64,000 bases of DNA from Chiloscyllium plagiosum (lineage: Eukaryota). Positions 6,256 through 48,671 of this stretch are shown one piece after another (within the stretch, counting starts at the first letter, position 1; each line of letters starts with the position of its first letter). The position numbers and the translations under genes were made by a program. The stretch covers positions 32,837,931 to 32,901,930 of the forward strand of contig NC_057719.1 of assembly GCF_004010195.1 (NCBI RefSeq). Reading direction: 5' to 3'. The notes under the pieces are model-generated. The model was not told the DNA's origin and made no database searches. It saw nothing but the letters and a program-made list of their open reading frames with translations.

Positions 6256-6807
6256 CTACTCACACTCATGAACCACAACTTTCAGTACTGCAAGTAACAT
6301 ATACATTCAACACTACATCTCATCCTCACAAGCTCCCATACCTTTCTGCCCTCTGCACTTCGTACTCACTCACTGGGGACACTTTATAACATCTCCTGGT
6401 CCTACATCAGCGCGAACTGCTCTTCCATACATTGTCATCACAGTCAGTGCCTCCTTATGGCTCATTATAGAAAGGTTAGTGCACTCTCAAGACCCATGTC
6501 ACCACCCTATCCAGGCTGTCAGTCCTGTAATCCTGGAAGAGCACAGCAGTTCAGGCAGCATCCGAGGAGCAGCAAAATCGACGTTTTGGGCAAAAGCCCT
6601 TCATCAGGAATAAGGCAAAGAGCCTGAAGCGTGGACAGATAAGCTAGAGGAGGGTGGGGGTGGGGAGAAAATAGCATGGAGTACAATAGGTGAGTGGGGG
6701 AGGGGATAAAGATGATAGGTCAGGGAGGAGGGTGGAGTGGATAGGTGGAAAAGGAGATAGGCAGGTAGGACAAGTCATGGGGACAGTGCTGAGCTGGAAG
6801 TTCGGAA

Positions 6808-7653
6808 NNNNNNNNNNNNNNNNNNNNNNNNNNNNNNNNNNNNNNNNNNNNNNNNNNNNNNNNNNNNNNNNNNNNNNNNNNNNNNNNNNNNNNNNNNNNN
6901 NNNNNNNNNNNNNNNNNNNNNNNNNNNNNNNNNNNNNNNNNNNNNNNNNNNNNNNNNNNNNNNNNNNNNNNNNNNNNNNNNNNNNNNNNNNNNNNNNNNN
7001 NNNNNNNNNNNNNNNNNNNNNNNNNNNNNNNNNNNNNNNNNNNNNNNNNNNNNNNNNNNNNNNNNNNNNNNNNNNNNNNNNNNNNNNNNNNNNNNNNNNN
7101 NNNNNNNNNNNNNNNNNNNNNNNNNNNNNNNNNNNNNNNNNNNNNNNNNNNNNNNNNNNNNNNNNNNNNNNNNNNNNNNNNNNNNNNNNNNNNNNNNNNN
7201 NNNNNNNNNNNNNNNNNNNNNNNNNNNNNNNNNNNNNNNNNNNNNNNNNNNNNNNNNNNNNNNNNNNNNNNNNNNNNNNNNNNNNNNNNNNNNNNNNNNN
7301 NNNNNNNNNNNNNNNNNNNNNNNNNNNNNNNNNNNNNNNNNNNNNNNNNNNNNNNNNNNNNNNNNNNNNNNNNNNNNNNNNNNNNNNNNNNNNNNNNNNN
7401 NNNNNNNNNNNNNNNNNNNNNNNNNNNNNNNNNNNNNNNNNNNNNNNNNNNNNNNNNNNNNNNNNNNNNNNNNNNNNNNNNNNNNNNNNNNNNNNNNNNN
7501 NNNNNNNNNNNNNNNNNNNNNNNNNNNNNNNNNNNNNNNNNNNNNNNNNNNNNNNNNNNNNNNNNNNNNNNNNNNNNNNNNNNNNNNNNNNNNNNNNNNN
7601 NNNNNNNNNNNNNNNNNNNNNNNNNNNNNNNNNNNNNNNNNNNNNNNNNNNNN
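6808..7653. other. Assembly gap (846 N)
   Basis: Run of n. It falls where the RT C-terminus and GIY-YIG domain of the PLE are expected. Confidence 1.
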
Positions 7654-8789
7654 GTGCCCATGGCTACCCCTTTGGCCTGGAGGAAGTGGGAGGATGCGAA
7701 GGAGAAATTGTTATGGGTGAGGATCAGTTTGGCCAGACGAATGAGATTGTCGGTGGAAGGATACTGTTGGGGTTGTCGGGAGAGGAAGAAACGGAGGGCT
7801 TGGAGGCCCTGGTCATGGCGGATGGAGGTGTAGAGGGATTGGATATCCATGGTGAAGGTGAGGCGTTGGGGGCCGGGGAAACGGAAGTCTTGGAGGAGGT
7901 GGAGGGCGTGGGTGGTGTCTCGAACGTATGTGGGGAGTTCCTGGACAAGGGGCGATAGGACAGTGTTGAGGTAGGTAGAGATGAGTTCAGTGGGGCAGGA
8001 GCATGCTGAGACAATGGGTCGGCCAGGGTGGTCAGGCTTGTGGATCTTGCGAAGGAGGTAGAACTGGGCAGTACAGGGTTCCCGAACTATGAGATTGGAA
8101 GCTGTGGGTGGGAGATCTCCTGAGGTGATGAGGTTTTGTATGGTCTTGGAGATGATGTTTTGGTGATGGGGTGTGGGGTCATGGTCGAGGGGGCTGTAGG
8201 AAGAGGTGTCCTTGAGTTGGCGTTTGGCTTCAGCGGTGTAGAGGTCAGTGCGCCAGACTACCACTGTGTCCCCTTTATCTGCTGGCTTGATGATGAGGTC
8301 AGGATTGGATCAGAGGGATTGGAGGGCTGTGTGTTGTGAGGGTGAGAGGTTGGAGTGGGGCAGGGAGGTAGACAGGTTGAGGCGGTTAATGTCCCAGCGG
8401 CAGTTGGAAATGAAGAGGTTGAGGGCAGGTAATAGGCTAGTGCAGGGTGTCCAGGTGGATGCAGTGTGTTAGAGATGGGCGAAGGGGTCCTCGGAAGATG
8501 GGCGGGAATACTGATTGTGAAAGTAAGCTCGGAGGCGGCGGAAGAAATATTCGACATTACGGCATGTATTAAAATCATCGATGTGTGGATGGAGGGGGAT
8601 GAAGGTGAGTCCTTTGCTGAGGACTGATCGGTCATCCTCAGTGAGGGGAAGGTCTGGAGGGATGGTGAAAACTTGGCAGGGCTGGGAGTTGGGATCTGGT
8701 GTGGGTGTGGAGCTGGGAGTGGGGGCAGAGCCAGTGACTGGAGTGGGTGTGATGGTGGGGGGAATGGGGGAGGGAGTCATGAGCAGGGG

Positions 8790-9245
8790 CACCTCCACAC
8801 ATCTATTAGCCCTAGCTCCTTATTCAGATCCACCAGTTGTCTAGATCTAAGAGATATACCCATTGTATTCTTAGCTATGCAATCTGTCTCTAGGTTCATA
8901 ATACAGTTAAAATTTCCTCCTATAATTTTATGGCAGACCCCAAAAGCCATCAACTTAGAGAAAACTTTCATTACAAATTTACAGGGGCGCGCTGGGTGGG
9001 GCAATAAAGATTCAAAATTCCATATTCCTCTCTATATATTAGGGCTTTGTTCAGTATATTCCGTCCAGACTCATCTTTTATCTGGCTTAACATTTGGAAA
9101 GGAAGATTCTTCCGAATAAGAATGACTACTCTCCTACTTTTTGAACTGAAAGATGAGAAAAAAGCCTGATCAAATCCACCTTATTGTAGCTTTATGTGCT
9201 CTTTGTCAAGTAGATGTGTCTCCTGTAAGAGAGCTATGTCAACCC
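8790..9245 (-). pseudogene. L1-clade ORF2 AP-endonuclease fragment
   Basis: Minus strand: VDIALLQETHL..EHIKLQ*GGFDQAFFSSFSSKSRRVVILIRKNLPF...IKDESGR...ILNLYCP, frameshift, then IIGGNFN...LGLIDVWR. These are APE motifs QETH, N.Y.P, GGDFN and DxWR. Confidence 0.82.
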
Positions 9246-9352
9246 TTTCTTTTCATCCCCTCCCCCACTCACCTATTGTACTCTATGCTACTTTCTCCCC
9301 ACCCCCCCCCTCCTCTAGCTTATCTCTCCATGCTTCAGGCTCTCTGTCTTTA

Positions 9353-9387
9353 TTCCTGATGAAGGGCTTTTGCCCGAAACGTCGATT
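9353..9387 (+). ncRNA. Minimal type I hammerhead ribozyme motif in PLE pseudo-LTR (core intact)
   Basis: ttc CTGATGA a GGGC-tttt-GCCC GAAA cg TC ga. Core boxes intact, 4-bp helix II, palindromic ACGT in place of helix III, GUC triplet. Helix I is only about 2-3 bp. Activity untested. Confidence 0.7.
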
Positions 9388-10387
9388 TTGTTGCTCCTCT
9401 GATGCTGCCTGAACTGCTGTGCTCTTCCAGCACCATTAATCCAGAATCTGGTTCCCAGCATCTGCAATCATTGTTTTTAACCACCGTCCTGTAATCCTCA
9501 CAATCTCCAGATTACACAGACATGGATCCTTGAATCAAGCACCTGCCATGCCCTGGGGCAGGAACCTGAGCCAAAAAAGTACACTATTTATTAAGATCTT
9601 CCAGCTCACTGAGGATTCAGGCAATCTTATAATCTGCTGTGAAAGCTCTGCTTACATTTTAGCAGTTTTTGAACACCTCAGTTGAACCAATCCACAGCAT
9701 TCTAAAACAATCACCAATATTCCAAATGAAACAACCTATAATATTAAAAACATTAATTTGCCCTCTCTCACAATGTTTCATGGATATTTTATTTACAATG
9801 TTCCAATATTCAGATCCACGTCTTAGTTAAACATTAATCAACTCTTCTTTTGACCATACTTTGGATACCAATTTACATTGGAATCAGTACATTAGTTTTT
9901 GAGATTACTGTTTACAAACAGATAAACAAGGATGAAAACATTATCTCTCTCATCTTCAGTACTGGAGGTAATGAATTATATAAATGCATCTTTAATCGGT
10001 GCATGCCATGTTTTAAATCAACATCTTTTATTTTTAAAGTTATGTCCTCTTTAGTTTCAAATGAAGTTTCTATTATAATGTGCACTAAGATCCTAAATTT
10101 GTGTGGGTTTATAATCCTGCAAATTAGGTTATAATGAAGCTTTGCATACATGATGCAATTTATTTGAGAGTTCAGTTCTACATATCTTTGACTTAAACAC
10201 ATCAGTAGAGCGTCTGTCAAACACAAAATGGGCAAATAAATCAAGGTTATTACCTTGTCTTCTTGATCATTATCGCAAGTAAATTGGTTCCCCACGTTAG
10301 TACAAAATAGCATATCGACACCTAATGCTACTTTCATTCTTGTGAAATCTTTGGAATACTATATGGGAAAAGTGCAAAGCTATTCCA

Positions 10388-10855: not shown

Positions 10856-10995
10856 AGCGTGAGTCCCAGCCTTGAAGACATTTGAAACTCAGGTTTTAAG
10901 TGCAGGTATACCTATGCAGTTAGTGGGACTCTCTCAGGCTGCCTGGAGGAACACTGGTGCTCTACCTCAACCCTAGTCTGCCACTTGGAGGCAAC

Positions 10996-12240: not shown

Positions 12241-12362
12241 ACTTCAGACAATGGTGCCCAATGTATCCAAGGACCTGGAGACTGACTGGACAATTCGAGT
12301 TGGCTTTCAGCAATAGACCTCATTAGACCATCATTGAGGAGAATTGGCTCATGGCCACTTAC

Positions 12363-12584
12363 TGGAGAAACTGAGGTCTGCAGATGCTGGAGATCAGAGT
12401 CTAGAGTGTGTTCCTTGAAAAGCACAGCAGGTCAGGCAGCATCCGAGGAGCAGGAAAATCGACGTTTCAGGCCAGAGCACTTCATCAGGAACTTCCTGAT
12501 GAAGGACTCTGGCCCGAAACGCCGATTCTCCTGCTCCTCGGATGCTGCCTGACCTGCTGTGCTTTTCCAGCTAGAAAATCTCAA
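12363..12584. mobile_element. Palindromic PLE pseudo-LTR insertion (family A) with two hammerhead motifs
   Basis: ~75-bp inverted arms (12417-12491 and 12493-12567). TSD ctcatggc(c/t)acttac at 12348-12362 and 12585-12599. Confidence 0.85.
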
Positions 12585-12924
12585 CTCATGGCTACTTACA
12601 GGTGCGTGACTCTACTGACTCCTCCCACACAATCCTACCTCCAGGACAATGGTTTGGGTTGGTGGGCATTAAGGTTGATAGAGGAAACTGACAGGTCAGC
12701 TAGCAGTAAGATACTCTGCATCTACGGACTTCTGCGTTGGCCCTATCAGGGCCAAATCAATTCAACGCGTACATTCAGTTTCCAAAGGTATACTGGTGAC
12801 ATCCAACTCTACCTCTCATCCATCCACCACCTACATGCAGCTGAATTACTTCACTGACATCCAGGCTTGGGGGTTCCAGTTTCCTGTATTTCAACACCTG
12901 ATGTAAGCATATGTGAGCGTAAGA

Positions 12925-14935: not shown

Positions 14936-15063
14936 CATTTCTAATGCTTTGGAAGCATAGAACTGAACTGCTCCCATGTTTAACAGAGATATATTCAATT
15001 ACAACAATATCTTAACATACTGATAGATCAGCGATTGAATGTCTTGTGTTCCTAATTACTAAT

Positions 15064-15339
15064 GATTTGGAAATGCCGGTGTTGGACTGGGGTGTACAAA
15101 GTTAAAAATCACACAAACCAGGTTAGAGTCCAACAGCTGAAAATGTGTTGATGGAAAAACACAGCAGGTCAGGCAGCATCCAAGGAGCAGGAGAATCGAT
15201 GTTTCGGGCTTGAGCCCTTCTTCAGTCTTTTGCAGCGCCGCTCCTTCATCAGGTGGTAGATGAAGGAGCGATGCTCCGAAAGCTAGTGTGCTTCCAATTA
15301 AACCTGTTGGACTATAACCTGGTGTTTTGTGATTTTTAA
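15064..15339. mobile_element. Palindromic PLE insertion (family B) with an embedded family A piece (~15137-15225)
   Basis: Arms match 47981-48178. TSD ctaattactaat at 15052-15063 and 15340-15351. Confidence 0.85.
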
Positions 15340-15364
15340 CTAATTACTAATAACAGTGTCAGAG

Positions 15365-18200: not shown

Positions 18201-20084
18201 TGGCGGGAATCTTATTGGGATCTGAACAATGTGGGCTGTGGAGAAATTTGTGGCAGAATTAGACTAGAATTCCATAGAGGCCAATCTTGACATCAGGAGT
18301 ATCTCGCTGCATCTTTTGGGGTGGATTGCCAATTAAGAGGGATTGCTGCTTGTTAAATGCAGTGTTGATGATCCAACACCCTTCATTAATATTCAGATGT
18401 TGTGTCAAATTTGCCAAACAAGCTAGATACTGAGAAAACATGACATGGAAATCGGAACCTGGTGGATTCAGCTCCCCACTTGCACCAAAGGACCTCCATG
18501 TTGGACATCGAGCAGCAATATTTTAGGTCACATTCAAAGGATATGGACCGCATGCACTGCACGTCCATGAACATTGGTATCTGAAATGTGCCGGTCTGTA
18601 AGACTGCTAATGGCAGATTTCCAATTCATTTACATGTACTCCTTTACTTCAATGCTGCCATGGATAACTATCATTGTAAAGCTGTAACAAGGACAGTGTG
18701 TGTCAAGGACTTACATTCATTTCCATGGACTCAACTATGGTGTATCTCTGGGATCTTTACTTACTGTCATAGTTCTCACTCACTCTCAGTTTACCTGAAT
18801 GTCTTGCCTTGTCTTACCTTTGTGTACTTTGCTCCCTCAGCCAGAAATATCAGGCTCATATTACTGCTGTGTTGCTTTGCCTGGTTTTACGCAGTTAAAA
18901 TCGCATAACACCAGGTTATGGCTCAACATGTACATTTGGAAGTACGAGCTTTTAGAGCATTGCTCCTTCATTAGGTAACTAGTTATGATTTTTAACTTTG
19001 TCCACCCCAGTCCAACACCGACACCTCCACATCGTGGTATTACACTGTCACAAAGCCAAGAAGCTTTTCATGGTATTGAGCTAGCCTCAGTAAAGCCAAG
19101 GGAGATAACCTTTGCTCAGGGACCCCAGCACAATAAGTCAAGACCAGCCTCTGATGCCAGTCCTGGAACTTGGAAATAGTCAGTTAGTCACTTGGGGTGG
19201 TGAGAGTCAGGATGGTCTCCACATAATGAATGAGGAGCTGAACATCAGACAGCCCACCACCCAACTTGAGGTTTACTGTCCTGCTGGGGGGAGCTACTTT
19301 ACTCCTGGAATGAGAAAGAGACGCATATTAAGGGAGATGAAAGTGCATGGTACAGCGGTTATGTTTGTGCAGGTCAAGAGGTGTCCCAAGTGAGTAAGTA
19401 GGCAGCACAGGGTTAGTGATTTTGGGGATTGGGCTGCGTGACAGTGAGTGAGGGAAGATGTTACAGCCAATAGTGGAAGTGGTACAGTGGTACAGGAGCA
19501 GAGGTGGAATAGGTGGGAGGTATCGGATGGTGGCAATTACAATGGTGGAAAGATGAAGGTCATTGACCATCCTTCATCCTGTACATTTCTTCAAATGGAT
19601 GTGAATGGTTTAACACAGATGGCAACCTTGGACCAAGCTGCAAGGTCTGGTGATGTGACCTCCATTGGTGGGCCTTAGCGAAGAGGAGCTCCTGCCTCTG
19701 CATCACCCATCCCAGCAGGAGCTCCAGGCTCCTTCCTGCACATTGGGTTACTGATTTCCCATTGGCTGCCATGTGCGAGGCAATTGTCAGGAACTATGCA
19801 GAGCAGCTCTGGACTAACAGTGCTTACCCAGGTGCATAATACACTTTTACGCATGGTACAGGCAAAGGATGTCAGTGAATTCCAGGATAACTGGTGAATA
19901 AAAAATGGCCTGGGTATGACATTGTAAACTCGGGTTGCAACTGGATGTAATGGATGTCGATTAAGTAGTTAATGAAGTGAGTGTGTTAAAATACAGTGAG
20001 AAAACTTGCTGTGCTCCGCAACAGAAATTGCTGCAGAAATTTGACCCAGCTCAGACTTAACCAAACAAACATAAGATACAGCCT
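18201..20084 (-). mobile_element. Probable decayed PIF/Harbinger element with Myb/SANT-like ORF remnant (~19550-19772)
   Basis: Minus strand MAANGK...RSLELLLGWVMQRQELLF...RSHHQTL / AWSKVA...RN / RMVNDL resembles the trihelix pattern (L..L...V..R...LF...AW..VA...C.K..NDL). Weak TIR-like ends ggcgggaatcttat and ataagatacagcc. Confidence 0.5.
18894..19033. mobile_element. Degraded PLE family B insertion
   Basis: gttaaaatcgcataacaccaggttat...gctccttcattaggt, then gatttttaactttgtccaccccagtccaacacc; same layout as 47981-48178. Confidence 0.8.
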
Positions 20085-21046: not shown

Positions 21047-21795
21047 AGAATAAAACAAAGAATTGCAGATGCTGAAAATCCAAAACAAAAACAGACATTG
21101 CTGAGAAACTCAGCAGATCTTGCAGCATCTGTGGAGAGAGAAACAGAATTAACATTTTAAGTCCAGTGACCATCCTTCAGAACTGATAGTAACTAAGAAA
21201 AGTTGTTTTATATGTAAAGGTGGATCATAAGCCACCATTTCTGCCATCTCTAGCAGAATGCCACTACAAGACACATTTCTCCTGTCTTCCCTTGTCAACA
21301 TTTCATAGGTTCCCCTCAGGACACCTTGATCTACGCTTCCTCCACTCCCAACACCATCCACATCTCTATGGCACCTACCGATGCAATTGTTAAAGGTATA
21401 ACAATTGCCCATTTGTCTACTCACTATCTAAGGCTCGAGATCAACCTTCCAGATGAAGCAGCAATTTACCTCGACTGCACTCAAACTAGTTTACTGTGCT
21501 TGCTGCTCACAATGTGGTCTCCTCTACACTGGGGAGATAAAACGCACACTGGATGACTACTTTGCTGAACACCTTTTGTCTCGCTACCTGTCATTCTTTC
21601 TCTCTCTCTGGGCTCCATTTCTGCCCATCTGCACATTCCTTTGCCACCGCACCCCACTCCTGACCTTTAGCTTATATACCATGTTTTCCTGGCTACTTCT
21701 GAAGAAAGGTCACTGAACCTGAAACATTAAGTCTGCTTCTTCTCCACAGTTGCCAGACTTGCTGAATTTCTCCAACGATTTCAGTTTTTGTTTTC
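21047..21795 (+). mobile_element. Degenerate PLE (family C) with GIY-YIG fragment and inverted pseudo-LTRs
   Basis: ORF 21453: FTSTALKLVYCACCSQCGLLYTGEIKRTLDDYFAEHL. Inverted ends at ~21050-21185 and ~21695-21795. Hammerhead motif actt CTGAAGA a aggt-cactga-acct GAAA ca TT aagt at 21695-21732. Confidence 0.8.
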
Positions 21796-22446
21796 CCTAC
21801 ACATTAGTATAAATCTTTAAATAATCCACAACATGTGGACTGTTCCCTCAGTTAGTTCACCCAGATCACTAACACAGATATTATTGACTAATAATCCTCA
21901 CAGAAATTCCTGCAGGACTCTGCATTATCAAGTTCCATGCAAGAGGACGACTATTAATAACAATCTTCTGATTGCTAACATGCAACCAATTTTTTATCTC
22001 TCCTGTAGTCTGCTCTTTCAGTCCTAAATTATCAACATGATGTTAATGGTATTCCGTCTAGGTAATGATCATTTGCAAGTGACAAACAAATCGACTGCTT
22101 CAGAATAGTTAACTGAGAGAGCTTAAAAAGTTTGAAACCAAAGTCTAATGAAAAAATCAGACATCATTTGGGGAGTACACATTTTCAAGGTATTTCTTCA
22201 AAAGATTTTTTAAAAGTCTTTTTTAATGCTACCTAATATGAAAATTTCCACAGGGTGCTGGAGTTGGCACACATGAAAGTGAAGGCATCTTTGTTTGAAA
22301 AATTGTGCTTTGTAAATACATGGTGGCAGACCCCAATTCAAAATTTAACAAATCACATAATTATGGTCACAATCCTCCAACCAGAAAAAGAACCAAATAG
22401 TACAAATAGATTGGTGAGTCCATAGAAGAAAAGAAAATGCACTTAC

Positions 22447-22470: not shown

Positions 22471-23710
22471 CTATAAATAAAACAAAAAGGAATTTTGAGC
22501 CCCTTGCACATTATTACACTATTTCCACAACTCTACATATTTCTGTTCATTCCAGTTTGTCATGTGTCACTTAAAACCAAAACAAGCCAAATATATTTTA
22601 CCATATTAATTCATTCACACTTACCTAGCCTTGAGATCAGTGCTACCATAGTCCCATTAAGCCAATATTTTAATTCAAACATTTCTTTTGAAACGGAGAA
22701 CCAAAGGTTAGAGATTAGTTTAAGTGATGACAGTTAGCTACAGCACATCATTAAATGCATAACATAAAAGCAGTGTTAATTCTTGAAACACCTTTTCAGT
22801 TCCTTTTCTTTAACATTACAATAGTTTTTGCTTCAACCTTTTCAAATACTATCACAAGTCATAGCTCTTTGTGAATTTAAGCTTGTTCTTCATCTGCTGA
22901 GATATTCTTCCAATGCGTCCTGGGAATTCAGAGAAAACTGCTCACATTGTTATTATATACTTTTTAATTCTCTCTCATGTTTTCACATAATCATTGTTTC
23001 TGGACGGCAGCAGAATAATGATGCACTGGGTTACAAGGCTGATAATTCTTTTTGTACTGTCGCTTCTATCAATGAAGAACATTGTGTGGGCCATGTGTGT
23101 ACAAGTGGCATCACTATCTGCCCTGGGGAAATTACTGTAAATCTGCACAGCACCAGTAGAAATGAAATGCTGCACAAAACAATTTCTCCCCCCATATATT
23201 TAGCAATCAGATGAAACTATTAAACACTAATGAACAGATAGATGATCATGTTTATGCATATTACAAAAGTTTTAAACTTAACAAACTTCCTTGTGAACTG
23301 GAAAGCAACTATACGAGAAGTGAGTGGGAAAAAAGGGAAAAGAATTGATTTAATTTGGGTATTTATTGAGAAAATTAGTTGATAATAGGAGTCAAGGTTT
23401 AAGGAAACAGGCATTGCTCAGACTGGAGGAAGGTTGGAAGTGATGTGACAGAAAGTACTAATTTCTAACTTTGGTTCTTGATGTTTTTAAGAGATTGGGA
23501 TTAACAACACAATATGTTTGGTAAAGAAAAGAATGTGATTGTGCTTTGATGTGAAAGATATGAAAAGTGTGACTGAACAGAGGAATATAAAAGTACAAAG
23601 ATGGAAACATCTGAAAGTATGGAATCAGGTCGATAAATCCAGAAGAAGACCAATAGCATGTTGAATTTTACACCGAGGAACGTTGTGAAACAAGTGTGAA
23701 AAAGCAAGTG

Positions 23711-23830
23711 TATGGTGTGCTGAAACGTCCAATTCCTGCTCCTCGGATGCTGCCTGACCTGCTGTGCTTTTCCAGCCCCACACTCTCGACTCTAATCTCC
23801 AGCATTTGCAGTCCTCACTTTTGCCTAGTA
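23711..23830 (+). mobile_element. Short PLE family A 3'-end insertion
   Basis: gaaacgtcc...ggatgctgcctgacctgctgtgcttttccagc...tgcagtcctcacttt. TSD aaaaagcaagtg at 23699-23710 and 23831-23842. Confidence 0.85.
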
Positions 23831-24359
23831 AAAAAGCAAGTGACTGTTGAAAAACCATGTTTAGCATACCCAATGACAGAAAAGCCACTTTAGCCAAATA
23901 TTGTGCTCCACTGATTGACCCAGACGTTGCCAGAGATAGGAACAGTAATTAGGAGAAGAAATACGAGGTACTGGCAATATTTCCATTGGAACAGATGAGG
24001 CTAAATGGAGGTTGAATTGAATACATTTATTAAATTACAGCGAACCTTGTGAAGAATTATTTAACTGGCATCTGGAGGAAGCAGCAAGTGACCCTCAGTC
24101 TTTTTTTGAATGAGAGATTGTGGAAGTTTGCCTTCTTAAAGGATTGTTAAACTATATTTCACATTTGACTCCAAGATGAGCTCCTGGCTACATAGCGATA
24201 AATTCAGTAAGATCGCCTTTCTACTATGCTATCATTTCTCGACCATATCCTGTTTTCGGCTATTCTATTACTGAATAATCACTCATACTTTTCTTATCTC
24301 TGGACTCATTTATGCCAGTATATCACTGGCTGGTTTCCACATCATATCCTTTGTAAGCT

Positions 24360-24835: not shown

Positions 24836-25950
24836 GACTTTATTGAAAGAAAGTGTTTGAGGCAAAAATGATTGAATCTTTCCAGAAAGAAATCAATAAG
24901 TATTTGAAACAAAGGGCTACAGGATGAGAACACGGCCAAAAGAAATAAAGCAAATAGGTTCTGTTTTAATTGCTCTCATAAGGAATTGTCACACAAGATG
25001 AATTGACAGGCCTCGATGTTATCAATTTCTGTAGTACGTTTCACAATGTCTCAAAAACATTTTGCAACACTTACTTGAAGTACAGGGAATGTGTTACCGG
25101 CAATACAACAGCCAATAATAATCAACCGCTCAATTAATGGACAAATCATGCAGCACAATTCATATTTCTAAATGGAAAGGGATATGCAAGAGTTTACTGG
25201 TTGATGTCAAAGTGTAATCCTTCTTGCATGACTTTGCACAACAAGTCAGTGAAATGAATAACAGGAAACAAAAACATTTTTGATTAAATTCTAAAGAAAG
25301 ACTTTCAACTGAATATGTAATGGAATGAAATTCCTTTTCTCTAAAAAAAAATCAAAGCTTGTTAGGATTCTGCAAAGTATCAAAACCAAACAGTGCTATT
25401 AATCAAATAGACATGGTATAGTCAAAATAAAAGATCTGTGCAAAATGATGTTCCACATAGATTCCACACTTTGTTATAAAGCCTCATTAGGAGGTATCTC
25501 AGCTAGGCATGTGTGATTTCATTCAACCAGCCATTCAACTGTTAAGGTAGTATTCGAGACCGGAATTTACAGAAAGAAAGTCTGCTGATGTGCAGTGTCA
25601 TGTGATTTAACTTTAAGATTGAAACAAAATGTGATCTATCACTGGTTATCTTGATCCAAGGCTGTCATTGATAGGCCAGTGAGGCCTTGGCGATGTAACA
25701 TCATGTTCAGCATTGAAAGGAACTAGATGTAAAAGAAGCTGGTAACCTTGTGGCTGCAGGCACACTGATTAATCACAGAAGGAGAGCTGCAGCCAAGAGA
25801 AGAATAGCAGCCAAAAAAGGAGCGTGACTCATTTGCAGAACAAATCATCTGTTTTCAGCTCAGGACTAGTTATTTAAGGGCGACAGAACCTCATCTTTAG
25901 TGGAATATTTAAGAAAGCCTAAAACCCTTGTTGGGTGGACGTTTAAGGGA

Positions 25951-26320
25951 TGGAAAATGTGTTGCTGGAAAAGTGCAGCAGGTCAGGCAGCATCAAAGGA
26001 GCAGGAGAATCGACGTTTTGGGCATAAGCCCTTCTTCAGGAATCAGGAGGGTGTGCCAAGCAGGCTAAGATAAAAGGTAGGGAGGAGGGACTTGGGGGAG
26101 GGGCGTTGTTTACCTATCGCATTCCCAATGCCCCTCCTCCAAGTCCCTCCTCCCTACCTTTTATCTTAGCCTGCTTGGCACACCCTCCTCATTCCTGAAG
26201 AAGGGCTTATGCCTGAAATGTCGATTCTCCTGCTCCTTTGATGCTGCCTGACCTGCTGCGCTTTTCCAGTAACACACTTTTCAGTTCTGATCTCCAGCAT
26301 CTGCAGTTCTCACTTTCTCC
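25951..26320. mobile_element. Palindromic PLE family A insertion with ~155-bp inverted arms and two hammerhead motifs
   Basis: Arms ~25953-26108 and ~26127-26282. TSD tgga(c/t)gtttaaggga at 25936-25950 and 26321-26335. Confidence 0.9.
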
Positions 26321-29674: not shown

Positions 29675-30220
29675 TTCAGTGCCAGTAATATACCCTCAAT
29701 GGCAGCAGCATGCCTGCTGAGATGGGCATTGGCTCTGTCAGCCTAGTCTAATGAAATCAGATACCAACAGGCAGAGAAACACAGCAATACACACAATGCT
29801 TTGTCACCAAATAAGAATGTTCCTGACTGGAACCTGAAAATTATGTACTTTTTCCAGGATGACAAGGTGCCAGTGTGAGTGAGTCAGGCGCAGAGCGCTA
29901 CCCAGAATGACCCAGTGTTGAGCCGAATGATGGACTTAGTCCTGACAGAAAGGACTTGTCTTAGAAACTGCTCAGAATTATACCCTTACCTATCCAGGAG
30001 GTGAGAGTTGTCTGTATCATGAGGGGAGTGAGAGTTGTTATCCCTTCACCGTTAAGAAAGAAAGTGCTGGAACAAATGCACCAAGGGCAGCCTGGCATAG
30101 TGCAAGTGAAGGAAATAGCCAGGAGCTACTTTTGATGGCTGAATGGAGACTTCCAGGTTGAGGAGAAAGCGAGATCATGACAATCCTGTCCATTAGTAAG
30201 GAAGGTACCGCCATTATCAA

Positions 30221-30320
30221 CTAGGAGAAAGTGAGGGCTGCAGATGCTGAAGACCAGAGTTGAAAAGTATGGTGCTAGAAAAGCACAGCAGGCCAGGCAG
30301 CATCCGAGGAGCAGGAGACC
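30221..30320 (-). mobile_element. Short PLE family A 3'-end insertion in the Gypsy integrase
   Basis: ggagaaagtgagggctgcagatgctg...gaaaagcacagcaggccaggcagcatccgaggagcagg matches 12364-12455. Confidence 0.85.
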
Positions 30321-31423
30321 CCTTCACCCATGGGAATGGCCGCAATCACCATGGCAGTAGATTCATGTCGATTTCACAGGACCAGTAGAGGGAGAAATGG
30401 TACTAGTGGTCATGGATGCCCACTCCAAGTGGCCCAAGGTGGTGGTCATGAAGTTGGTATCAATGGAAGCAACAATAGACTGACTAGATGAAATCCTTAC
30501 CAGGTTCGGGAACCTCAAACAAAGCATGAGTGACAATGGTCCACAGTTTGTGTCGTGAAAGTTCAAGGGGTATCTGGAAAATCATGGAGTCTGACATGGC
30601 TCCATACCACCCTGTGACAAATGTCCAAATGAAGAGATTTGTATAAACCTTGAAGTAGGCCTTAAAGGCCTCACAAGGAGGGTACTCAATAGGACAGTGG
30701 CTCAACAAGTCCCTCAGCACGTACAGGAACACACCACACAACAAAGACCCAGCATTTGCCAATGTCCCTAATGTTCAACTGCCGGCTGAGAACCATGTTT
30801 GAAGAGAGCAGAGAGGTGATAGAGTGACATCAAGAAGGACAGATAGATGAGCAGGAACCTCAAAGTCAAGGATATTCCAAAGAGGAGAGATCACGTTGGC
30901 CTGGAATTACACTTCTGGGGAGAAATGGATCCCAACAGTGGCGGAGGCTTCAGCAGGACCATTGTCATATACAGTGCAGACCAGGGGTGAAGATGGTCTG
31001 GAGGAGACAGTTGGTTGCTGCACCTCGCCAATGGGGTGATTGTCCCTCAGACCACTGAGACGGTCCAGATGGATCCAATGGTGTCAACCGAGTCATGTAT
31101 CTCTGAGACAGAGTTGGCCATCCCCAGGGAGATAGCAGCAGCTTTGTCCCTGGACAATGGCAGCCAGAGAGAGATGTACCTGCAGAACAACAGGAGCTTC
31201 AGGGAGACCACATCAGATAAGGTTCCTGAGACCGTCTTTAAGGAATCACCATCTCCCTGAGAGAGTGATCTTGTCAATGTAGACTGCCAGACAGTCACTT
31301 TCTTTTTCCATGATTTGTTTCTGTTTAGAAAACTTCCTAATTATGTACATATGTTAACTATTACACCATGCCTAAATAATAGTTATAATTGTCGGATATA
31401 TATACACACATATATATGTAGTT

Positions 31424-32404: not shown

Positions 32405-33850
32405 AACATATTTGGATTTCCAGATGGCCTTTGGTGCCACACAGGAGGCTGCTAAATAAGATAAGAGCTCACGATGTTAGGGTTAAGGTTCTGGCATGGA
32501 TAGAGGATTGGCTGACTGGCAGACGACAACCATGATGTGGAGGTGCCAGTGTTGGACAGGGGAAGACAAAGTTAAGAATCACACCACATCAGCATTATTT
32601 GGAAGTACAAGCTTTCGGAGTGCTCCGTAGCTACCTGATGAAGGAGCAGTGCTCCAAAAACTTGTACTTCCAAATAAACCTATTGGACTATAACCTGGTG
32701 TTGTGTGATTTGTAACTTTGGCAGAAGGTAGACTGTGAGGAGAATGGGGTCAATTCAGGATGGCAGCCAATGTCTAGTGGAGTTCCACAGGGCTCTGATT
32801 TGAGACCACAGCTATTAATGTTGTACATTAGCGATCTGGATGAAGGAACTGATGGCATTGTTGCTACGTTTGCACATGATACAAAGGTAAGTAAAAGGAC
32901 AGGCATTGTTGACAAAATGGGAAGGCTGCAGAAGAACTTGTATAGGCTAGGCGAGTGGGCAAAGAAGTGGCAGATGGAATGCAGCATTGAAAAGTATGAG
33001 GTTACACACATTAGTGGGAAGAATAGAGGCATGGACTATTTTCTAAACAGGAAATGGCTTCAGAAATTTGAAACACAAAGGAACTTAAGAGTACTAGTTC
33101 AGGATTCTCTTAAAGTTAGCAGTCAGGTTCAGTTGGACGTTAGGAAGGCAAATGTAATGTTAGTATTCGTTTCAAGTGGGTGAGAATTCAAGACCAGAGC
33201 GGTAGTGTTGAGGCTGCAGAAGGCTCTGGTCAGACTGCACTTGGAATATTCTGAGCCGTTTTGGGCCCTGTGTCTCAGAAAATATCAAGTGAGGTGGGCT
33301 TGAAGCGCTAAATTGCCTACTCCAGCTCTTGATTCCGATGAAGGATGTGTTGGCCTTGGAAGAGGTCCAGAGAAAGTTTGAAGAATAACTCCAGAGATGA
33401 ACAGCTTGTCATATGTGGAGTGGTTGAGGACTGTTGGTCTGTACTCGATGGATGTTAAAAGGATGAGGTGGTATTTCATTGAAGCTTCCAGAATACTGAT
33501 AGGCTGAATCGACTGGAAGTGGAGAAGATGTTTCCACTAGTAGGAGAGACTGGGACCCAGGGGCACAGCCTCAGAGTGAAGGAATTGGCCCTTTAGAACT
33601 GAGACGAGGTGGAATTTCTTCAGCCAGAGGGGGTTAATCTGTGGATCTGACTACAGCAGAAGCCTGTGGAGGTCAAGTCTTTGAGTGAATTTATGACAGA
33701 GATGGATGGATTCTCGATTAGTAAGAACATCTTGGGTTATGGGGAAAAGGCAGGAGAATGGAGTTGAGAAACTTATCAGTCATAATTGAATGATGCAGTG
33801 GATTTGATGGATCAAATTGGCTAATTCTGCCCCGACATCTTACTCTTATG
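32405..33850 (+). mobile_element. Older CR1 fragment (RT to 3' UTR)
   Basis: ORF 32770: SGVPQGSDLRPQLL.LYISDLD...TFAHDTK...WAKKWQM. Interrupted by a PLE insertion. Confidence 0.88.
32531..32718. mobile_element. Palindromic PLE family B insertion inside CR1
   Basis: Contains tac CTGATGA aggagc-agt-gctcc aAAA (32632-32665). Degenerate duplication tggcaga(c/a)g at 32517 and 32719. Confidence 0.82.
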
Positions 33851-35039: not shown

Positions 35040-36280
35040 CTTAGAGTCACAGAGGTGTACATCTTTTTCATCAAACTCATCTCTGCCAATCAGATATTCT
35101 AAATTAATCTAGTCCTATTTACCAGCATTTGGCCGATATCCCTCTAAACCCTTACTGAAGACAATAAATACTGAAGATCAAGTGGGCCAGACAGCATGTT
35201 TCAAGTCTAGATGACTCTTCATCAGAGCTGAAGTAAAGTGTGGAGGGGTCAGCATTTATTTGATAGTTTGGGGGGACGGTGGGCACTAGTGGTAGTGGGT
35301 GTAGGGTGTCAGAGAATAAAAGATGTTGATAGCGCAGATTAAGTGATCGGAATGTGAGAATGGCAGAACGATGGTGTGTCTCCTGCCACACATGGAAAGA
35401 TAGTAAGTGGGATGGGGGGAGGGGAGAGAGAACATGATGACAAGCTAAAAGAAAGGGAAGAAATAGTTCACAATTTGAAGGTGTGGAACTCAATATGAAG
35501 TCCAGAAGGCTGTAAAGTGCCTAGTCTGAAGATGAGATGTTGTTCCTCCAGTTTGCTCCATGATTCACTGGAACACTGCAGCAGGCCGAGGACAGACACA
35601 CCAGAGTAGGCCATGCTGGAGAAACCAAACGCAGACTGGGTGACCGCTTTGCAGAACATCTCCAGTCTGTGCACAAGTAAGACCCTGACCTTCCTGCAGC
35701 TGGTCATTTTAACACAACGTCCTGCTTGCCTGCCCTCATGTCTGTTCTCGGCATCTGCAGTGTTCCAGTGAATCACAGTGCAAACTGGAGGAACAACATC
35801 TCATCTTCAGACTAGGCACATTACAACTTTCTGGACTTAATATTGAGTTCAACACCTTCAAATTGTGAATCATTCCTTCCCTTTTTTTAGCTTGTTGTCA
35901 TGTCCTCCCCTTTCCCATCCCAGCGTCTGCCCTTTTAAGTCTGGCAGTGGACACACCGTTATTCCGCCATTCTCATATACTGATCATTTAATCTGAACTA
36001 AAAACATATTTTCTCCACCAGCACCCTGCATTCAGTACCTCTGCTTGCCCCCACCCCCCACCCCACCCCCCACACCTCACTTTTGCTCCAATGAAGAGTC
36101 ATCTGAATTCAAAACATTAGCTTCCTTTTTCTCCATGGAGGCTGTCAGACCTGCTGTGACCTCCAACATTTGTTGTCTTCAGTACAGATTACAGATTCTG
36201 TAGTAATTTGTTCCTCCCTTGAAACCCTTCCTATTCTTGTACCTATTAAGATGCCTTTTAAATATTGTAATTGTATCAGT
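35040..36280 (-). mobile_element. CR1 3' end split by a PLE insertion
   Basis: 35040-35153 continues at 36216-36280 (aaacccttcctattcttgtacc...gatgccttttaaatattgtaattg). Confidence 0.8.
35154..36215. mobile_element. Palindromic PLE (family D): two inverted copies of the GIY-YIG C-terminus plus pseudo-LTR
   Basis: Plus strand GETKRRLGDRFAEHL (~35618-35662). KLEEQHLIFRLGTLQ.SGL.IEF on both strands. Arms ~35155-35598 and ~35740-36185. TSD ccct(ct/tg)aaaccctt at 35140-35153 and 36216-36229. Confidence 0.88.
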
Positions 36281-36429
36281 TTGGCATAACATTATTTATA
36301 ACATGGATTATTTACAGTCATAGCAAAGGGTTAGTCCTGTAGTCTTTATTTGCGAAGCAACATTTTCTAATTCCAATTATTGTACATGAACATTTATCTA
36401 ATTTATCCAAGCACTAACAGAATAGTGTC

Positions 36430-41600: not shown

Positions 41601-43238
41601 CCAAGAGGTATGGGGAACAAGCAGAAATATTGTAGTGAAATGGAGGATCAGCCATAATCATGTTGAAAGGTGGAGCATGCTCTTAGGCTCACATGTGCTC
41701 CTGGTTTCTACAATACAGCTCTGTGTTAGGCAGCATTAACTTCTGCACTGTCTGTTTTGAATGGCTGTATGCAGAAGTCACCTCTGTCACATCGCACACA
41801 GTTAGGCTCTCACTTCTATAGCTGTAGTCTGTGCTCTTGATGGACAAATAAAATGGAAATTTCTAATTACAAAAGAAAAGTGATTAAAATGTTTGAGAAA
41901 GATCAAGAACTGGAAGGTTGAATCTCCTGAATATCCTCACAGCTGGAGAAAAAGAGGCACTGGAGCTGGGAGGCATAAAGACAGCGCATAAAACGTTGGT
42001 GAGACCCAGACAGAGAGTGCCCAGGTCGATACAAAAACATGTTCCAGGTTATGAGTAGTCAGAGGTCTGGAGTCTCAAGGCCCCAGACAACCAGAAGATG
42101 ACTGCCAATGCCAGTGTAGAGCATGGAGCAGGAAATTAGCCTTTCACTTTTATGTCAGCTAACACTACATTCACAAGTAGTTGAGAAACTATTTGGATTT
42201 CAGAGGGTTAAATTATATGTTTAGATGTCACCTTGCTGCTTAATTGCTTATAATGAATTTTAACACGCTGCATCACAGAGATATTCCTTCAGAAATGGCT
42301 GGTTCAGCGTCGGTTAATGGGTGCAGTGAGAAAGAGCACACTCAATGACATCAATGCATTTCCCAAGCCTGAGACTCACATGCTAACAGCTTCTGATCTG
42401 TGACATTTTAAGGGTTTTTAAGAAAAGTACAACAGGCTACAGAAGCTGTAAGATTCACACAGGGGTGTGAGGAAAATTTGGGAGAAATCTTTCTATTTAG
42501 CATTAGAATTGGCTTTATTGTCACATATACTCAAATAAAAAGTGTATAAGTTGCTTGTGAGCCATAAGCCTATCTCACATGTATCATATTGTCTTTTCTG
42601 GTGCTCCTTTGAAGTTCTCACTGTACGATGCCTTGTCACCATTCTCCTCCATATCCTTATCCTTGAGGGAGGTATCATGCTCCTAGTTGTCTTCATTGTT
42701 CAACACTTCTCTGTATTTTAACACCAGGTTTTATAGTGAACAGCTGACTACAAAGATATGCAACAACTTTGCTGGGACATATTGAAAGGCTGAGGTATAT
42801 AAAGACCCTGTGAGTCATATCTTTGTAAGCAATGTTTTGCATGATGGTCACTTGAGTTGTCCTATGGCAACTATTGCATGTCTCCTCTGCATTTGCACTT
42901 CGTTTTCGACAGACATACAGAGCCAAAGAAGCACCTGAAAAAGCCAGGTATGTTGGATTACTGAAATATGACAGCATCGTGACAGTTTCCCAGGAACCTA
43001 GCACAAACCTGAAAGGTCCTTTTGCAATGCTCTCACACACACACACTTAGAGCAAGAGAATGTTGTTCCAGTTAATAGAGGCTGCTGTCTACTCTCTTCA
43101 GGGCCATATGTATGCAGTCGATAATGGTCCTGATTCCTATAGAACTCTCAGTTTAAATATCCAGTGCATATATTGACCCTTCCCCTTCAATAGATCATTA
43201 ATGACCATCTTGAGGTGGCAATGAGCTATAAAATATGA

Positions 43239-43293
43239 AGCTCCTTGGATGCTGCCTGAACTGCTGTGCTCTTCCAGCACCACTAATCCAGAA
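43239..43293 (+). mobile_element. 55-bp PLE family A fragment
   Basis: gctccttggatgctgcctgaactgctgtgctcttccagcaccactaatccagaat matches ~9393-9447. TSD tata(a/g)aatatga at 43227-43238 and 43294-43305. Confidence 0.8.
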
Positions 43294-44664
43294 TATAGAA
43301 TATGAGATCCCATAGATATCTATAATGGATCCTGGGAATGATCCTGAGGTGTTGAGATTCAGCACAACAGACGCCTTCACTACAGCAACAGGAGTGTGCC
43401 ACTTCCCCTTGGTCTCGGATCCTCTTCTGTCACTTTGTACAGTCTCCCTGGAGAGACTCAATCTTTGGTGACACTGCTGCTCTAGCATTTGTGGAAAGCA
43501 GGGCCTCAGAGGTCACACCTCTCTGGTGGGTAGTGTGATTTGTGCAAGAGGCTGGTAGTTCACCAGCCTGTGTTTTCCTTGTCCTTCTAGCCTCCTAATC
43601 CTGATGCCGGAGTGCTGCTGCACCCTCCCTTTCTGATGCTCCTAAATGAGATCTCAAGATCTGATTGAATGGGGCACATTGAAAATTGTTGCATTCAATT
43701 CTCAGGACCTTGAGCCCCAAACTCCATGCATACAACTACCAAGTTTGACAGCACAATCCATTATGTCAGATAGATTTGGATAGACTCCAGATTGGGATTG
43801 TCACTGCCTACTCTTTCACACCTTCCCTACTGCCACCACTTACAACGGCTGCTGACTACAGTAACAATGTATCTTCAACTGAACATCTACTTCCTTAGAG
43901 TTAGCGAAGATGAATTCTTGCTTTCTCATGCATCAAAATATAAAATCTCTGGTAAATATCTTTTCATGACCTAACTGTTTAGTATATATAATTACCTTCC
44001 CATTACCTTCAAGCATGACTTCTACCTACCAGAATGGCTTCCTGTGGGAACTACCCTCCCCAGTAGCATGAACACATTGCGCTTCCCTTCTGAAGCCATT
44101 TTGATATCATTCTGCTGCTCTTTATTTCTCTCAAAACCCCAGTCTAAAACACAATATGTCATGGCAACATGAACCACTGAGAGAATGCACAAAATTGATG
44201 ACAGAACAATGAATCACTCCTTAAAAAAATCAGTGTAATACATTTTCCACTTCATTTTGTTTTATAGGCCATTGGTGTGCTTATGACCTATAGTTGAATG
44301 TCTTTTTGACAAGATTCTCAAGTGTCATACACCAATGCATGTCTTAAAATTAGTCAAGGTTAAGGGACTGACTAAACTGTCTGGTAATTTTAGTTAATGG
44401 GCCTAATTTGAATAATTATATTGAATCAAAGAGCTTTTTCACCACATAAAAAGCAAGGCATGAAAAGGCTGCATCAGTGTTATATGATTTCCTTTCTAAA
44501 AACTGTAAATGATGCTCTGTATGATGAAAGGATGCATTCATATATTACATATTTTAAAATTTTAAACAAGCTGACATATTGCTGGATTTCTCTCAAGCAA
44601 TTTATCTTCAGAGTTTTTTATATGAATTATCAGAATTTGAAATATCTCTAAGTATAATTCTTAC

Positions 44665-45294: not shown

Positions 45295-45425
45295 TACAAA
45301 ACTGCAGATGCTGGATATCTGAAACCAACACAAAACATGCTTGAGAAATGCAGGTCTGGCAGCATCTAATGGAGAGAGAAAAACAAAGATAATGTTTCTA
45401 GTCCAGTACGACTCTTCCTAAGGAC
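45295..45425 (-). mobile_element. PLE family C 3'-end fragment
   Basis: actgcagatgctggatatctgaaaccaacac...ggtctggcagcatc...ggagagagaaa matches 21060-21185. Confidence 0.7.
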
Positions 45426-45581
45426 TGATCACCAAGACCATTTCTTCTTCTGATTATTGTAATGTACTCCTAGTTTTCATCCTGAGTTCTAAATTTGAAG
45501 TCGTTCAAAACTCTGTTTTGGTCCTAACATGCTTGAAATTTTGTTCCCTCATGACTCTATGCTCACTGATCTAGTTACAAT

Positions 45582-46674: not shown

Positions 46675-47060
46675 AAGATTCAGACAGTGTGGAAACAGAC
46701 ACTTCGGTCCAAGTGGTCCGGACCAACCATATTCTAAAACAAAACTAGACCCACTTGCCTGCATTTGGACTATATCTCTCCAAAGCTTTCCTTTTCATGT
46801 ACTTACCTAAATGTCTTTTAAACATTGTAACTGTACTGGTATCTACCACATCCTCTGGAAGGTCATTCCACACACTAACCACTCTCTGTCTAAAAAGATT
46901 GCCCTTCATGCCCTTTTTAAAACTTTCTCCTCTCACTTTAAAAATTTGCCCCTTATTTTGAACTCTTCGATCTTGGGGAGAAGACGCCTGCTAGTCACCC
47001 TATCCATGCTGCTCATGATTTTATAAACCTCTGTAAGGTTACCCCTCAACCTCCTACATT
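46675..47060 (-). mobile_element. CR1 3' fragment
   Basis: ORF 46745..46936 RGESFK...RVVSVWNDLPEDVV...FKRHL. Confidence 0.85.
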
Positions 47061-47290
47061 TAACAGAAGGTATGGACTATATAACAGTGGGGCCAGGAAA
47101 TTGGGGATGCCCAAGAGGCTAGAATTGGAAGAGCACAACAAATGATGCAGAGACTGGAGACATTTATTCAGATCCCCAAAATGAGTGAGAGAATGAGCTG
47201 TAATCAACAAGTGGCCATTCAATCAGGAATTAAACAGTGAGGTGAACCTGCAATATATTTAATAATACAGAGAGAGGTTTAACAAGTCTG

Positions 47291-47580
47291 ACCCTTCCTC
47301 AGAAGTTCTGGGGAGGGGTTACTCGACCTGAGATGTTGGCTCTGGTTTCTCTCCACAGTTGCTACTTGACCTGTTGAGCTTTTCCAGCAATTTCTGATTT
47401 ATAGCATCCACAGTTCTTTCAGTTTTTATTTTCCTAGATACCATCAGTTCTGAGGAAGGGCTACTCGACCTGAAACAATAACTCTCATTTCTCTCTGCAG
47501 ATGCTGCCAGACTTGCAGAGCTTTTCCAGCAGTTTCTGCTTTTGTTACAAATTTACAGCATCTGCAGTTCTTTTGGTTTA
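47291..47580 (+). mobile_element. PLE family C insertion: short inverted stub plus two direct tandem pseudo-LTR units
   Basis: Units ~47305-47435 and ~47445-47575, each starting gttctg(g/a)gga(g/a)ggg.tactcgacctga. aacaagtctg duplicated at 47281-47290 and 47581-47590. Confidence 0.78.
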
Positions 47581-47980
47581 AACAAGTCTGGAGTGTGATG
47601 GAATGCTCTTCACATGTCTGGATGGTTATAATTTCAGACTCATTCAAAAGGATCTACACATTCAGGATGAAGGAGCTCAGTTGATTGACATCCTATTTAT
47701 CATCAGAAAAAAAATCACTCCTTCTCCCAATGGAGTACTATGGCAGCTGTATGTACCACCTACCAGATGCAGTGCAGCAACGTATCGAGGTTTCTGCAGC
47801 ATGACCTTCTAAACCCATGACCTCTACCAACCAGACACACACAACGCTACCATTTTTAAGTTGCACACCTTTATGACTTGAACATACATCGCTTCATCAT
47901 TGCTGAATCAAATTCCAGAACTCTATACTTAACAACACAAAGGCAACACATTCAGCACAAGCAGTGAAGCAGTTAGTAAA

Positions 47981-48178
47981 GTTAAAAATCACACAACACC
48001 AGGTTATAGTCCAACAGGTTTAATTGGAAGCACTAGCTTTCGGAGTGTAGCTCCTTCATCAGGTGGTTGTCCGCTCCGAAAGCTAATGCTTCCAATTAAA
48101 CCTGTTGGACTATAACCTGGTGTTGTGTGATTTTTAACTTTGTACACCCCAGTCCAACACCGGCATCTCCAAATCATG
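47981..48178. mobile_element. Young palindromic PLE family B insertion inside an older LINE tail (~47590-48290)
   Basis: 68-bp inverted arms 47978-48045 and 48074-48141 with one mismatch. TSD gcagttag(t/a)aaa at 47969-47980 and 48179-48190. Confidence 0.9.
48031..48065 (-). ncRNA. Minimal type I hammerhead ribozyme motif (core intact), sense to MDGA2 pre-mRNA
   Basis: Minus strand CAC CTGATGA a GGAG-ctaca-CTCC GAAA gc TA GTG. Helix I CAC/GTG, 4-bp helix II, palindromic AGCT, CUA triplet. Activity untested. Confidence 0.72.
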
Positions 48179-48671
48179 GCAGTTAGAAAAGGCAGCATTC
48201 CCATCCCCTTCATAACTGTAATGTGGGATGGACAAATGTTGGTCTTGCCAGTGACATTCACATTTTGGAATGAATTATAAAAAAAAAATTAAAACCAATG
48301 TCTCAGAATACAGGTTTTAAAGTCACATAAACATTTTAAATTGATTACAATTTGTACTGCAATGATATGTAACTCTAAGACCAGCTCCTTGCCAAGGATA
48401 CAATGTCACAGTGAAGCTGGTTTTCTCCTCAATCTCCAACCTGTATTTGCTTGAGATCATTTCAATTCTATAGAATTCATACCAAGAATATGAATGTCAA
48501 AGCCATTTGGAAATGATAAGGCTGGAATTCCAGTCTTCAAACACACATTGACTTGGAGTTAGAAACAAGATTGTGGTATAATCCTTCACAGATGAAAATA
48601 TGAGAAAGAAGAGTCATATAGTTCAGTGCGCAAATAATGAAAAGCTAATAATTCACAAATATTGGCATTTA

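Follow-up and report, generated by a model that had tools for sequence, protein, structure and literature searches.

A 64,000-nucleotide stretch of the Chiloscyllium plagiosum genome (assembly GCF_004010195.1, contig NC_057719.1, positions 32,837,931 to 32,901,930 of the forward strand; called the window below, with coordinates counted from its first letter) carries a series of mirror-image insertions that are the known footprint of Penelope-like elements (PLEs), here in new shark families. An earlier note, made from the sequence alone, had picked out seven insertions of several families in which two copies of the element's 3' end face outward; all seven hold such inverted arms, and one further palindrome, E8 (18893-19033), was found. 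In every one of the eight, a single arm bears a terminal tail and the other is tail-less, both facing outward, a pairing with P=0.004 under independent 50:50 choice. Their parts are as follows (strand in brackets; duplication matches as fractions).

6522-6534 (+): E1, left target duplication, 13/13 with 9486-9498
6533-8800 (-): E1, long arm, family A, with tail-less end at 6533-6535, pseudo-long terminal repeat (pseudo-LTR), 846-N gap and reverse transcriptase (RT) frame at 7656-8306
8800-9250 (-): E1, central piece captured from elsewhere, a probable L1-type APE endonuclease fragment
9250-9485 (+): E1, inverted arm with hammerhead core (9356) and tail
9486-9498 (+): E1, right target duplication, 13/13 with 6522-6534
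12350-12599: E2, with duplications 12350-12362/12587-12599 (12/13), tail arm 12363-12491 (-), short arm 12493-12571 (+) and filler 12572-12586
15052-15351: E3, with duplications 15052-15063/15340-15351 (12/12), family B tail arm 15064-15136 (-), family B resuming at 15227-15257 (-) and short arm 15259-15341 (+)
15137-15225 (-): E3, inner family A piece, starting at family A's tail-less site
18882-19045: E8, family B, not in the earlier list, with short arm 18893-18976 (-), tail arm 18986-19037 (+) and a degraded 11-nt duplication 18882-18892/19035-19045 (9/11)
25936-26335: E4, with duplications 25936-25950/26321-26335 (14/15), short arm 25953-26108 (-) and tail arm 26109-26320 (+)
32517-32731: E5, inside a CR1-like RT frame, with tail arm 32531-32626 (-), short arm 32628-32720 (+) and a degraded 13-nt duplication 32517-32529/32719-32731 (9/13)
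35139-36229: E6, family C, inside a host repeat, with short arm 35154-35598 (-), tail arm ~35605-36214 (+), GIY-YIG C-terminal coding pieces and a 15-nt duplication 35139-35153/36215-36229 (13/15)
47969-48191: E7, with duplications 47969-47981/48179-48191 (12/13), short arm 47978-48071 (-) and tail arm 48072-48179 (+)

The minus-strand frame at 7656-8306 in E1 encodes a PLE reverse transcriptase with PADKG, the PLE-type DKG motif. It has 389 relatives at E<=0.001, the best being a Chiloscyllium punctatum protein (P0001, 90% identical), followed among named matches by other cartilaginous fishes and then by corals, molluscs and echinoderms; Pfam gave this fragment a weak RVT_1 match only (E=0.067). 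The Pfam GIY-YIG domain is present in full-length relatives P0048 and P0084, and the coding piece of E6 matches residues 815-834 of P0048 (E=5e-08). In E1 itself the endonuclease region is hidden by 846 N (6808-7653), across which the RT frame stays in register. A CX2-5CxxC linker precedes GIY-YIG in 24 of the 38 relatives longer than 780 residues, and the shark element's own linker falls within the N gap; a Neptune/Nematis-type label would go by the linker motif of relatives only. The DKG-type RT, the GIY-YIG domain in relatives and E6, the inverted pseudo-LTR, the one-sided tail and the short duplication match endonuclease-bearing PLEs, and the earlier statement that inverted pseudo-LTRs with a short tail are a known PLE trait agrees with the published architecture (PMC3846280, PMC8557442). 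A hammerhead core pattern matches nine times in the window, seven times in PLE arms together with stem II, and fixes the sense of each arm; an Rfam scan of the window gave no match at gathering score, hammerhead included, and the shark repeat patterns had no match in the viral and metagenome contigs searched.

End classes and target junctions

The two arms end at different, family-specific sites. In family B (E3, E5, E7, E8), inserted into unrelated targets, the ends of all four short arms lie no more than 3 nt from a common site, and those of all four full arms no more than 2 nt from a second, 35-40 nt beyond the first. In family A, the short end precedes the full one by 36-38 nt in E4, in the piece inside E3 and in a solo copy at 43240-43294, or by ~51-55 nt, at a second position, in E1 and E2; the short arm of E6 (family C) is missing ~37 nt. 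The shortfall of ~30-55 nt claimed for the short arm is borne out.

The two classes were followed genome-wide by placing reads and contigs on the tail arm of E7 together with its flank (48066-48365). Reads came from two raw runs of the same species label (X19 and X20, about 4% of each, with ~60,000 placed reads per run) and contigs from two related organisms, B and C (sets X5 and X11). X19 depth in 10-nt bins from 48116 was 51,675; 50,056; 37,839; 27,138 (at 48146); 23,954; 19,916; 3,731 (at 48176); and 16. A two-class fit with an edge-loss term placed the family B ends at 48140.0-48140.6 and 48176.3-48176.6, ~36 nt apart, with the short class making up 47-53% of family B arms in 20/20 fits, under a model that assumes two classes and takes in only copies at least 85% alike. 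Given a flank depth of ~0-2, the rough estimate is of tens of thousands of family B arms. Full ends in X19 fall at 48176, 48177 and 48178 (3046, 4613 and 4534 reads, respectively); the short end is less sharp, occupying four positions or more, none of which figures among the six X19 rows listed, and 48141 is a listed short-end position in both contig sets. A few contigs of organisms B and C and 1-2 X19 reads join a short end (48135-48142) to a full end (48175-48178) on opposite strands with 3' ends facing; these could be tandem palindromic units or assembly artefacts.

Flanking direct repeats were scanned around 13 elements, the eight palindromes and five solo or tandem copies (below), with 156 swapped and 400 random flank pairs as controls.

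23696-23842 (+): solo family A copy with tail (copy 23720-23831), 12-15 nt duplication, 9 extra bases at the 5' junction
30223-30318 (-): solo family A copy with tail, duplication not above chance
43227-43305 (+): solo family A copy ending at the tail-less site (copy 43240-43294), 12-nt duplication, 11/12
45296-45429 (-): solo copy of a related PLE family with tail, duplication not above chance
47278-47590 (+): direct tandem of two diverged PLE ends (copies 47291-47577) inside one 13-nt duplication, 11/13

Duplications measure 11-15 nt across the palindromes and score 9-13 in E1, E2, E3, E4, E6, E7 and 3/5 of the non-palindromic copies, scores of 9 or more being reached by 2/156 swapped and 4/400 random pairs (6/556 in all); E5 and E8 score 7 and 6, within the control range. 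The 12-15 bp duplications described previously thus rise above controls in six elements and not in E5, although the latter's duplication is supported despite its low score because the CR1-like host frame reads GRR on either side of the insertion. The duplicated stretch of E6 occurs once in 7/7 other window copies of its host repeat, a stand-in for the empty site; a search for second window copies of the other elements' flanks found none, save weakly for E5. In the flanks of the placed sequences, 14/14 listed consensus rows show a run of A followed by a run of T, the changeover lying 12-14 nt outside the element, from which we infer a preference of the second nick at a constrained distance; the switch is not a direct measure of duplication length, and the T-richness beyond the nick cannot be attributed to primer pairing. 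The proposed 12-15 nt stagger is supported in the window and indirectly by this switch.

Four overlaps between short arm and duplication, quoted earlier as a recurrent feature, lie where they were reported, whereas the short arms of E2 and E4 adjoin fillers (13-15 nt and 2 nt, respectively) instead; the E2 filler has no other window match within 2 mismatches. Counted by eye, and omitting the full end of E6 and the tandem (family continuation not known) as well as the two solo copies without a duplication, overlaps at short ends were 2, 0, 2, 0, 2, 1, 4, 0 and 1 nt (n=9), a mean of 1.33 vs 0.70 by chance (P=0.052, or P=0.017 with metagenome loci L066 and L039, described below, added). Those at full ends were 0, 0, 2, 1, 0, 0-1, 2-3 and 2 nt (mean 0.88-1.12, P=0.15-0.34), and both ends pooled gave P=0.03-0.06. 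A small excess is plausible, has no clear specificity for the short arm and would fine-tune the start at most. Since the overlap is marginal and occurs at full ends too, and since short ends cluster at one site, microhomology does not explain where the short end lies, and the idea that it picks the short arm's start in each insertion gives way to a family-specific site.

That the full arm starts at the RNA end, also proposed earlier, is doubtful; the full end is probably internal on the RNA. Beyond the point at which E2 and E4 end, two family A copies have four further bases in common. Of the 8 read rows for 48177 and 48178, 7 go on with an identical trio of letters in register with the element, a sign either of continuing element sequence or of target bias, and at metagenome locus L006 the upstream pseudo-LTR runs on into a 599-residue frame while the downstream copy stops. 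In PAc, a Poseidon element of Anolis carolinensis, the starts are internal, and lengthening the RNA 3' end left the main product unmoved (PMC11167929).

An old PLE remnant at 21400-21800 has a GIY-YIG-like coding piece and a hammerhead core at 21699, and the solo copy at 30223-30318 sits in a stretch (30100-30450) that resembles, by a candidate motif, decayed LTR-retrotransposon integrase sequence. The nine extra bases of the first solo copy (23711-23719) are possibly a vestigial second arm: they hold an 8-nt match to the antisense of the family A short end, equalled by 203/5000 random stretches.

Origin of the paired arms

The centres differ in 8/8 palindromes, and that of E7 is spanned by 16 reads in X19, where depth reaches a plateau near 51,600, and by 18 in X20; 529 distinct joints were listed or counted in reads, and the best opposite-strand row, for centres from 48072 on, holds 216 of 60,156 reads. 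Of the two arms, the tail-less one has the greater upstream reach in E1, E5, E7 and E8; in E3, E4 and E6 the tail arm is ahead, and in E2 the two are equal, so that neither kind can always be a copy of the other. A tail-primed complementary DNA (cDNA) that snaps back can make a second arm only from the stretch that it has itself copied, and a cDNA begun at the short site has no tail to pass on; simple snap-back therefore fails in 4/8 (E1, E5, E7, E8), and both arms there would have to be RNA-templated. Concordance of the arms in subfamily cannot tell one RNA from two, because the subfamilies differ in age.

Foreign pieces interrupt two of the palindromes, at the centre or close to it. The centre of E1 holds 450 nt in the same sense as the long arm, in which neither poly(A) nor an own duplication was seen; its translation bears probable L1-type APE endonuclease motifs. 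Atlas features give a lead at 0.92-0.94 to endonuclease/exonuclease/phosphatase clusters; Pfam and PDB searches with fragments of the piece found no match, and there is no second copy within the window. The arrangement suggests that the PLE RT jumped onto an unrelated RNA. The family A piece in E3 replaces ~20 nt of family B with no duplication around it, which fits a cross-family template jump or a later insertion with deletion.

We regard it as probable (roughly 0.68) that these are insertions of endonuclease-bearing PLEs, putatively of Neptune/Nematis type, made by twin target-primed reverse transcription from two family-specific internal RNA starts. The element protein would nick both strands 12-15 nt apart, favouring A-rich sequence before and T-rich sequence after each nick, and each free 3'-OH would prime cDNA on element RNA, as the anatomy implies, leaving both element 3' ends outward. 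The two cDNAs would start at two family-specific internal sites, the tail being the distance between them; the end classes are seen here, and their identity as start sites, shown for PAc, would carry over to the shark. To judge by the arm classes of all eight palindromes, each insertion would use each start site once, and a start may move a few bases under an overlap of 0-4 nt. Both cDNAs would stop at variable points, at times after a jump to another RNA, and then be end-joined head to head; fill-in would produce the target duplication, and a single primed end would give a solo copy. The template may be one RNA or two. That both 3' target ends prime and the cDNAs join head to head, as the earlier note had put forward, is supported because the outward arms lie within one duplication, the 8/8 centres differ, the arms of 4/8 cannot be mutual copies, and both strands are extended in vitro (PMC11167929).

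Relatives were sought in metagenome contigs by RT alignment, with 80 of 332 loci kept. Inverted arms surround the RT in 7 of the 80, two of which run into contig ends. In favour of the same reading, the non-shark relatives L066 (16/16) and L039 (13/14) repeat the shark layout, with clear duplications of 16 and 14 nt, one tail arm and one short arm; L060 has mixed arms with the tail-less one longer, and its duplication, like those of L034 and L056, is not above chance. One metagenome family has its main short site ~45-55 nt before the full end, with a few earlier ends. Other layouts also occur in this set: inward-facing arms 2.2 kb apart at L041, and terminal direct repeats of 127-797 nt around the PLE open reading frame at L014, L015 and L072, as expected of tandem or circularly assembled units.

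Several observations count against twin priming from two fixed starts. The case is one of insertion anatomy, and the in vitro work found the start site no different between strands, which by itself does not predict strict one-of-each pairing (PMC11167929). The short site is not unique in every family, given the second position in family A (E1, E2) and metagenome loci L039 and L071, which end ~100 nt short. A clear duplication is present in just 2/5 two-armed metagenome loci with both flanks, and the contigs of organisms B and C, where an empty site for E7 was sought, both carry the insertion junction. The ~1:1 ratio of end classes could also arise from balanced solo copies. Agreement among the flank consensus rows is only 0.34-0.37, and a G stands at the A-to-T switch in 6/12 full-end and 0/2 short-end rows; this G reads as the complement of the short start site and could fit some microhomology there, and a nick preference would give the same G, primer pairing and nick preference not being separable in these rows.

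An unlikely alternative is that one strand folds back and self-primes into a hairpin, by cDNA snap-back or by antisense-RNA self-priming (PMC3846280), the tail being what remains once the endonuclease has trimmed one end (PMC8557442). One-of-each pairing and the 1:1 ratio would then need no further assumption, the arms of one element do share subfamily variants, and those of E2 stop at the same upstream base. However, snap-back of a target-primed cDNA should make the second arm a subset of the first, which fails where the tail-less arm is longer (E1, E5, E7, E8, L060, L066), and foreign pieces or blunt joins occupy the centres. A variant in which a free hairpin loses sequence from one end or the other may apply, but would need a strand-transfer step of a kind not known for GIY-YIG nickases.

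Unlikely, too, is twin priming of the L1 kind, as the earlier note had it, in which one nick primes at the RNA 3' end and the other anneals internally wherever microhomology permits. It would account for the 2-4 nt overlap at 4/9 short ends and its P values, for the fuzzier short end and for the G at the distal nick position in half of the full-end rows; L1 5' inversions have 12-18 bp duplications, and 71% of them have microhomology of at least 2 bp (PMC11702581). It does not account for short ends that fall within 3 nt in 4/4 family B copies with unrelated targets and as one genome-wide step, nor for overlaps at full ends (mean 0.9-1.1) and fillers in their place in E2 and E4. L1 inversions, moreover, copy adjacent, nearly non-overlapping parts of the RNA where the shark arms copy the same part, and in PAc both starts lie within the RNA and lack homology to the cut DNA (PMC11167929).

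That one preferred site was hit twice by separate insertions, or that one arm later lost its end, is very improbable: the window does contain solo copies of both end types, E3 holds two families and contigs show the rare opposite-strand joins of short to full ends, but a single duplication brackets each pair with none at the centre, and the short ends share one position, unlike random deletion. MITE-like palindromic units copied whole, which small size, terminal inverted arms and duplication might suggest and which the earlier note had tied to one fixed centre, are scarcely credible, as no such centre was seen, the joints are many with none dominant, E7's own is nearly unique, and the arms carry RT, GIY-YIG and putative ribozyme sequence of PLEs; for family B such copying is rejected unless a shared centre lies upstream of the stretch examined (48072).

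RNA structure and relation to known systems

In 4/5 arms tested, a stem of 9 bp in family B and 7 bp in family A, with unrelated sequences, links the tail to a segment that lies upstream of the short site, and it encloses the short site within its loop region; the stem was matched in 22-80 of 2000 shuffles (stretches 48100-48165, 26240-26306 and 9400-9475). Covariation of the stem was not found inside family A, nor the stem itself in E6; the consensus fold of the metagenome family has just a 4-bp tail-to-upstream helix, and whole-arm folding energies were not better than those of shuffles (z -1.4 to +1.0). We propose tentatively, at somewhat less than even odds, that PLEs have an integration pathway of their own, in which an asymmetric dimer would cut both strands with an offset of 12-15 nt and prime each 3' end at a different place on a single RNA stem-loop. 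One start might then lie inside the loop region and the other beyond the 3' strand of the stem, a strand supplied by the tail, a placement that we hold just as tentatively.

Many arms stop close to the putative ribozyme. Both arms of E2, the three longer pieces of E3, the right arm of E5 and the left arms of E7 and E8 stop upstream no more than ~8 nt from the first hammerhead-core base, and two solo copies begin 4-9 nt after the presumed hammerhead cleavage site. Perhaps the RT stalls at the fold of this ribozyme, or RNA 5' ends arise there.

The shark insertions share with canonical endonuclease-bearing PLEs an inverted 5'-truncated pseudo-LTR, a head-to-head layout, a short duplication, a 30-40 nt tail usually on one end, a hammerhead (putative in the shark) in the pseudo-LTR and capture of foreign sequence (PMC3846280, PMC8557442). 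Pen2a_Av of Adineta vaga has inverted pseudo-LTRs with a 31-bp tail on one, an empty allele and duplications of 8-10 bp, compared with 11-15 nt in the shark, and was explained by self-priming (PMC3846280); the often one-sided PLE tail was attributed to endonuclease resolution (Fig. 2 scheme), and how PLEs make inverted and tandem insertions was described as undefined (PMC8557442). Where those accounts invoke self-priming or resolution, the shark arm extents favour two RNA-templated starts. For PAc, both strands were cut and extended in vitro, two internal starts without homology to the cut DNA bound the tail, and a dimer was predicted (PMC11167929). PAc and the shark elements have in common a tail delimited by two sites, an internal start spread over several bases (a window of 8 nt, 111-118, in PAc; likewise several positions at the family B short end) and AT-rich targets; they differ in that PAc belongs to the Penelope/Poseidon clade and the shark RT relatives mostly carry the Neptune/Nematis linker. 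In its available text, PMC11167929 leaves the steps after first priming unvalidated and does not extend its result to inverted insertions, to the length of duplications or to one-of-each pairing. With L1 twin priming the shark insertions share, by their anatomy, priming from both target 3' ends, discrete duplications (12-18 bp in L1) and end-joined cDNAs; in L1, though, the second priming is microhomology-led, variable and beside the first cDNA's end, leaving no terminal inverted repeat (PMC11702581), whereas both shark arms copy the same RNA region from set sites. The available parts of PMC9977147, PMC8969392 and bioRxiv 10.64898/2026.07.22.740005 added nothing on mechanism.

A search for literature pairing Penelope with twin priming gave, judged by title, nothing on PLE mechanism, and no other mechanistic paper on PLE insertion was found in the literature searched. 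Two earlier works (Arkhipova 2006; Evgen'ev and Arkhipova 2005) may already state a twin-priming model. The layout is already known, and our additions are modest: the 1:1 share of the two end classes, their pairing one of each, and the argument from arm extents, the last of which excludes simple snap-back for half of the window's palindromes. Across tens of thousands of genomic arms they set three testable constraints, namely that the end classes stand at ~1:1, that each palindrome pairs the two, and that the second nick leaves its signature at a distance of 12-14 nt, and so make the open question of PLE insertion testable. If the stem-loop reading is true, twin priming, an accident in L1, would be the default of PLEs, and a single step would account for the duplication, the tail and the inverted pseudo-LTR.

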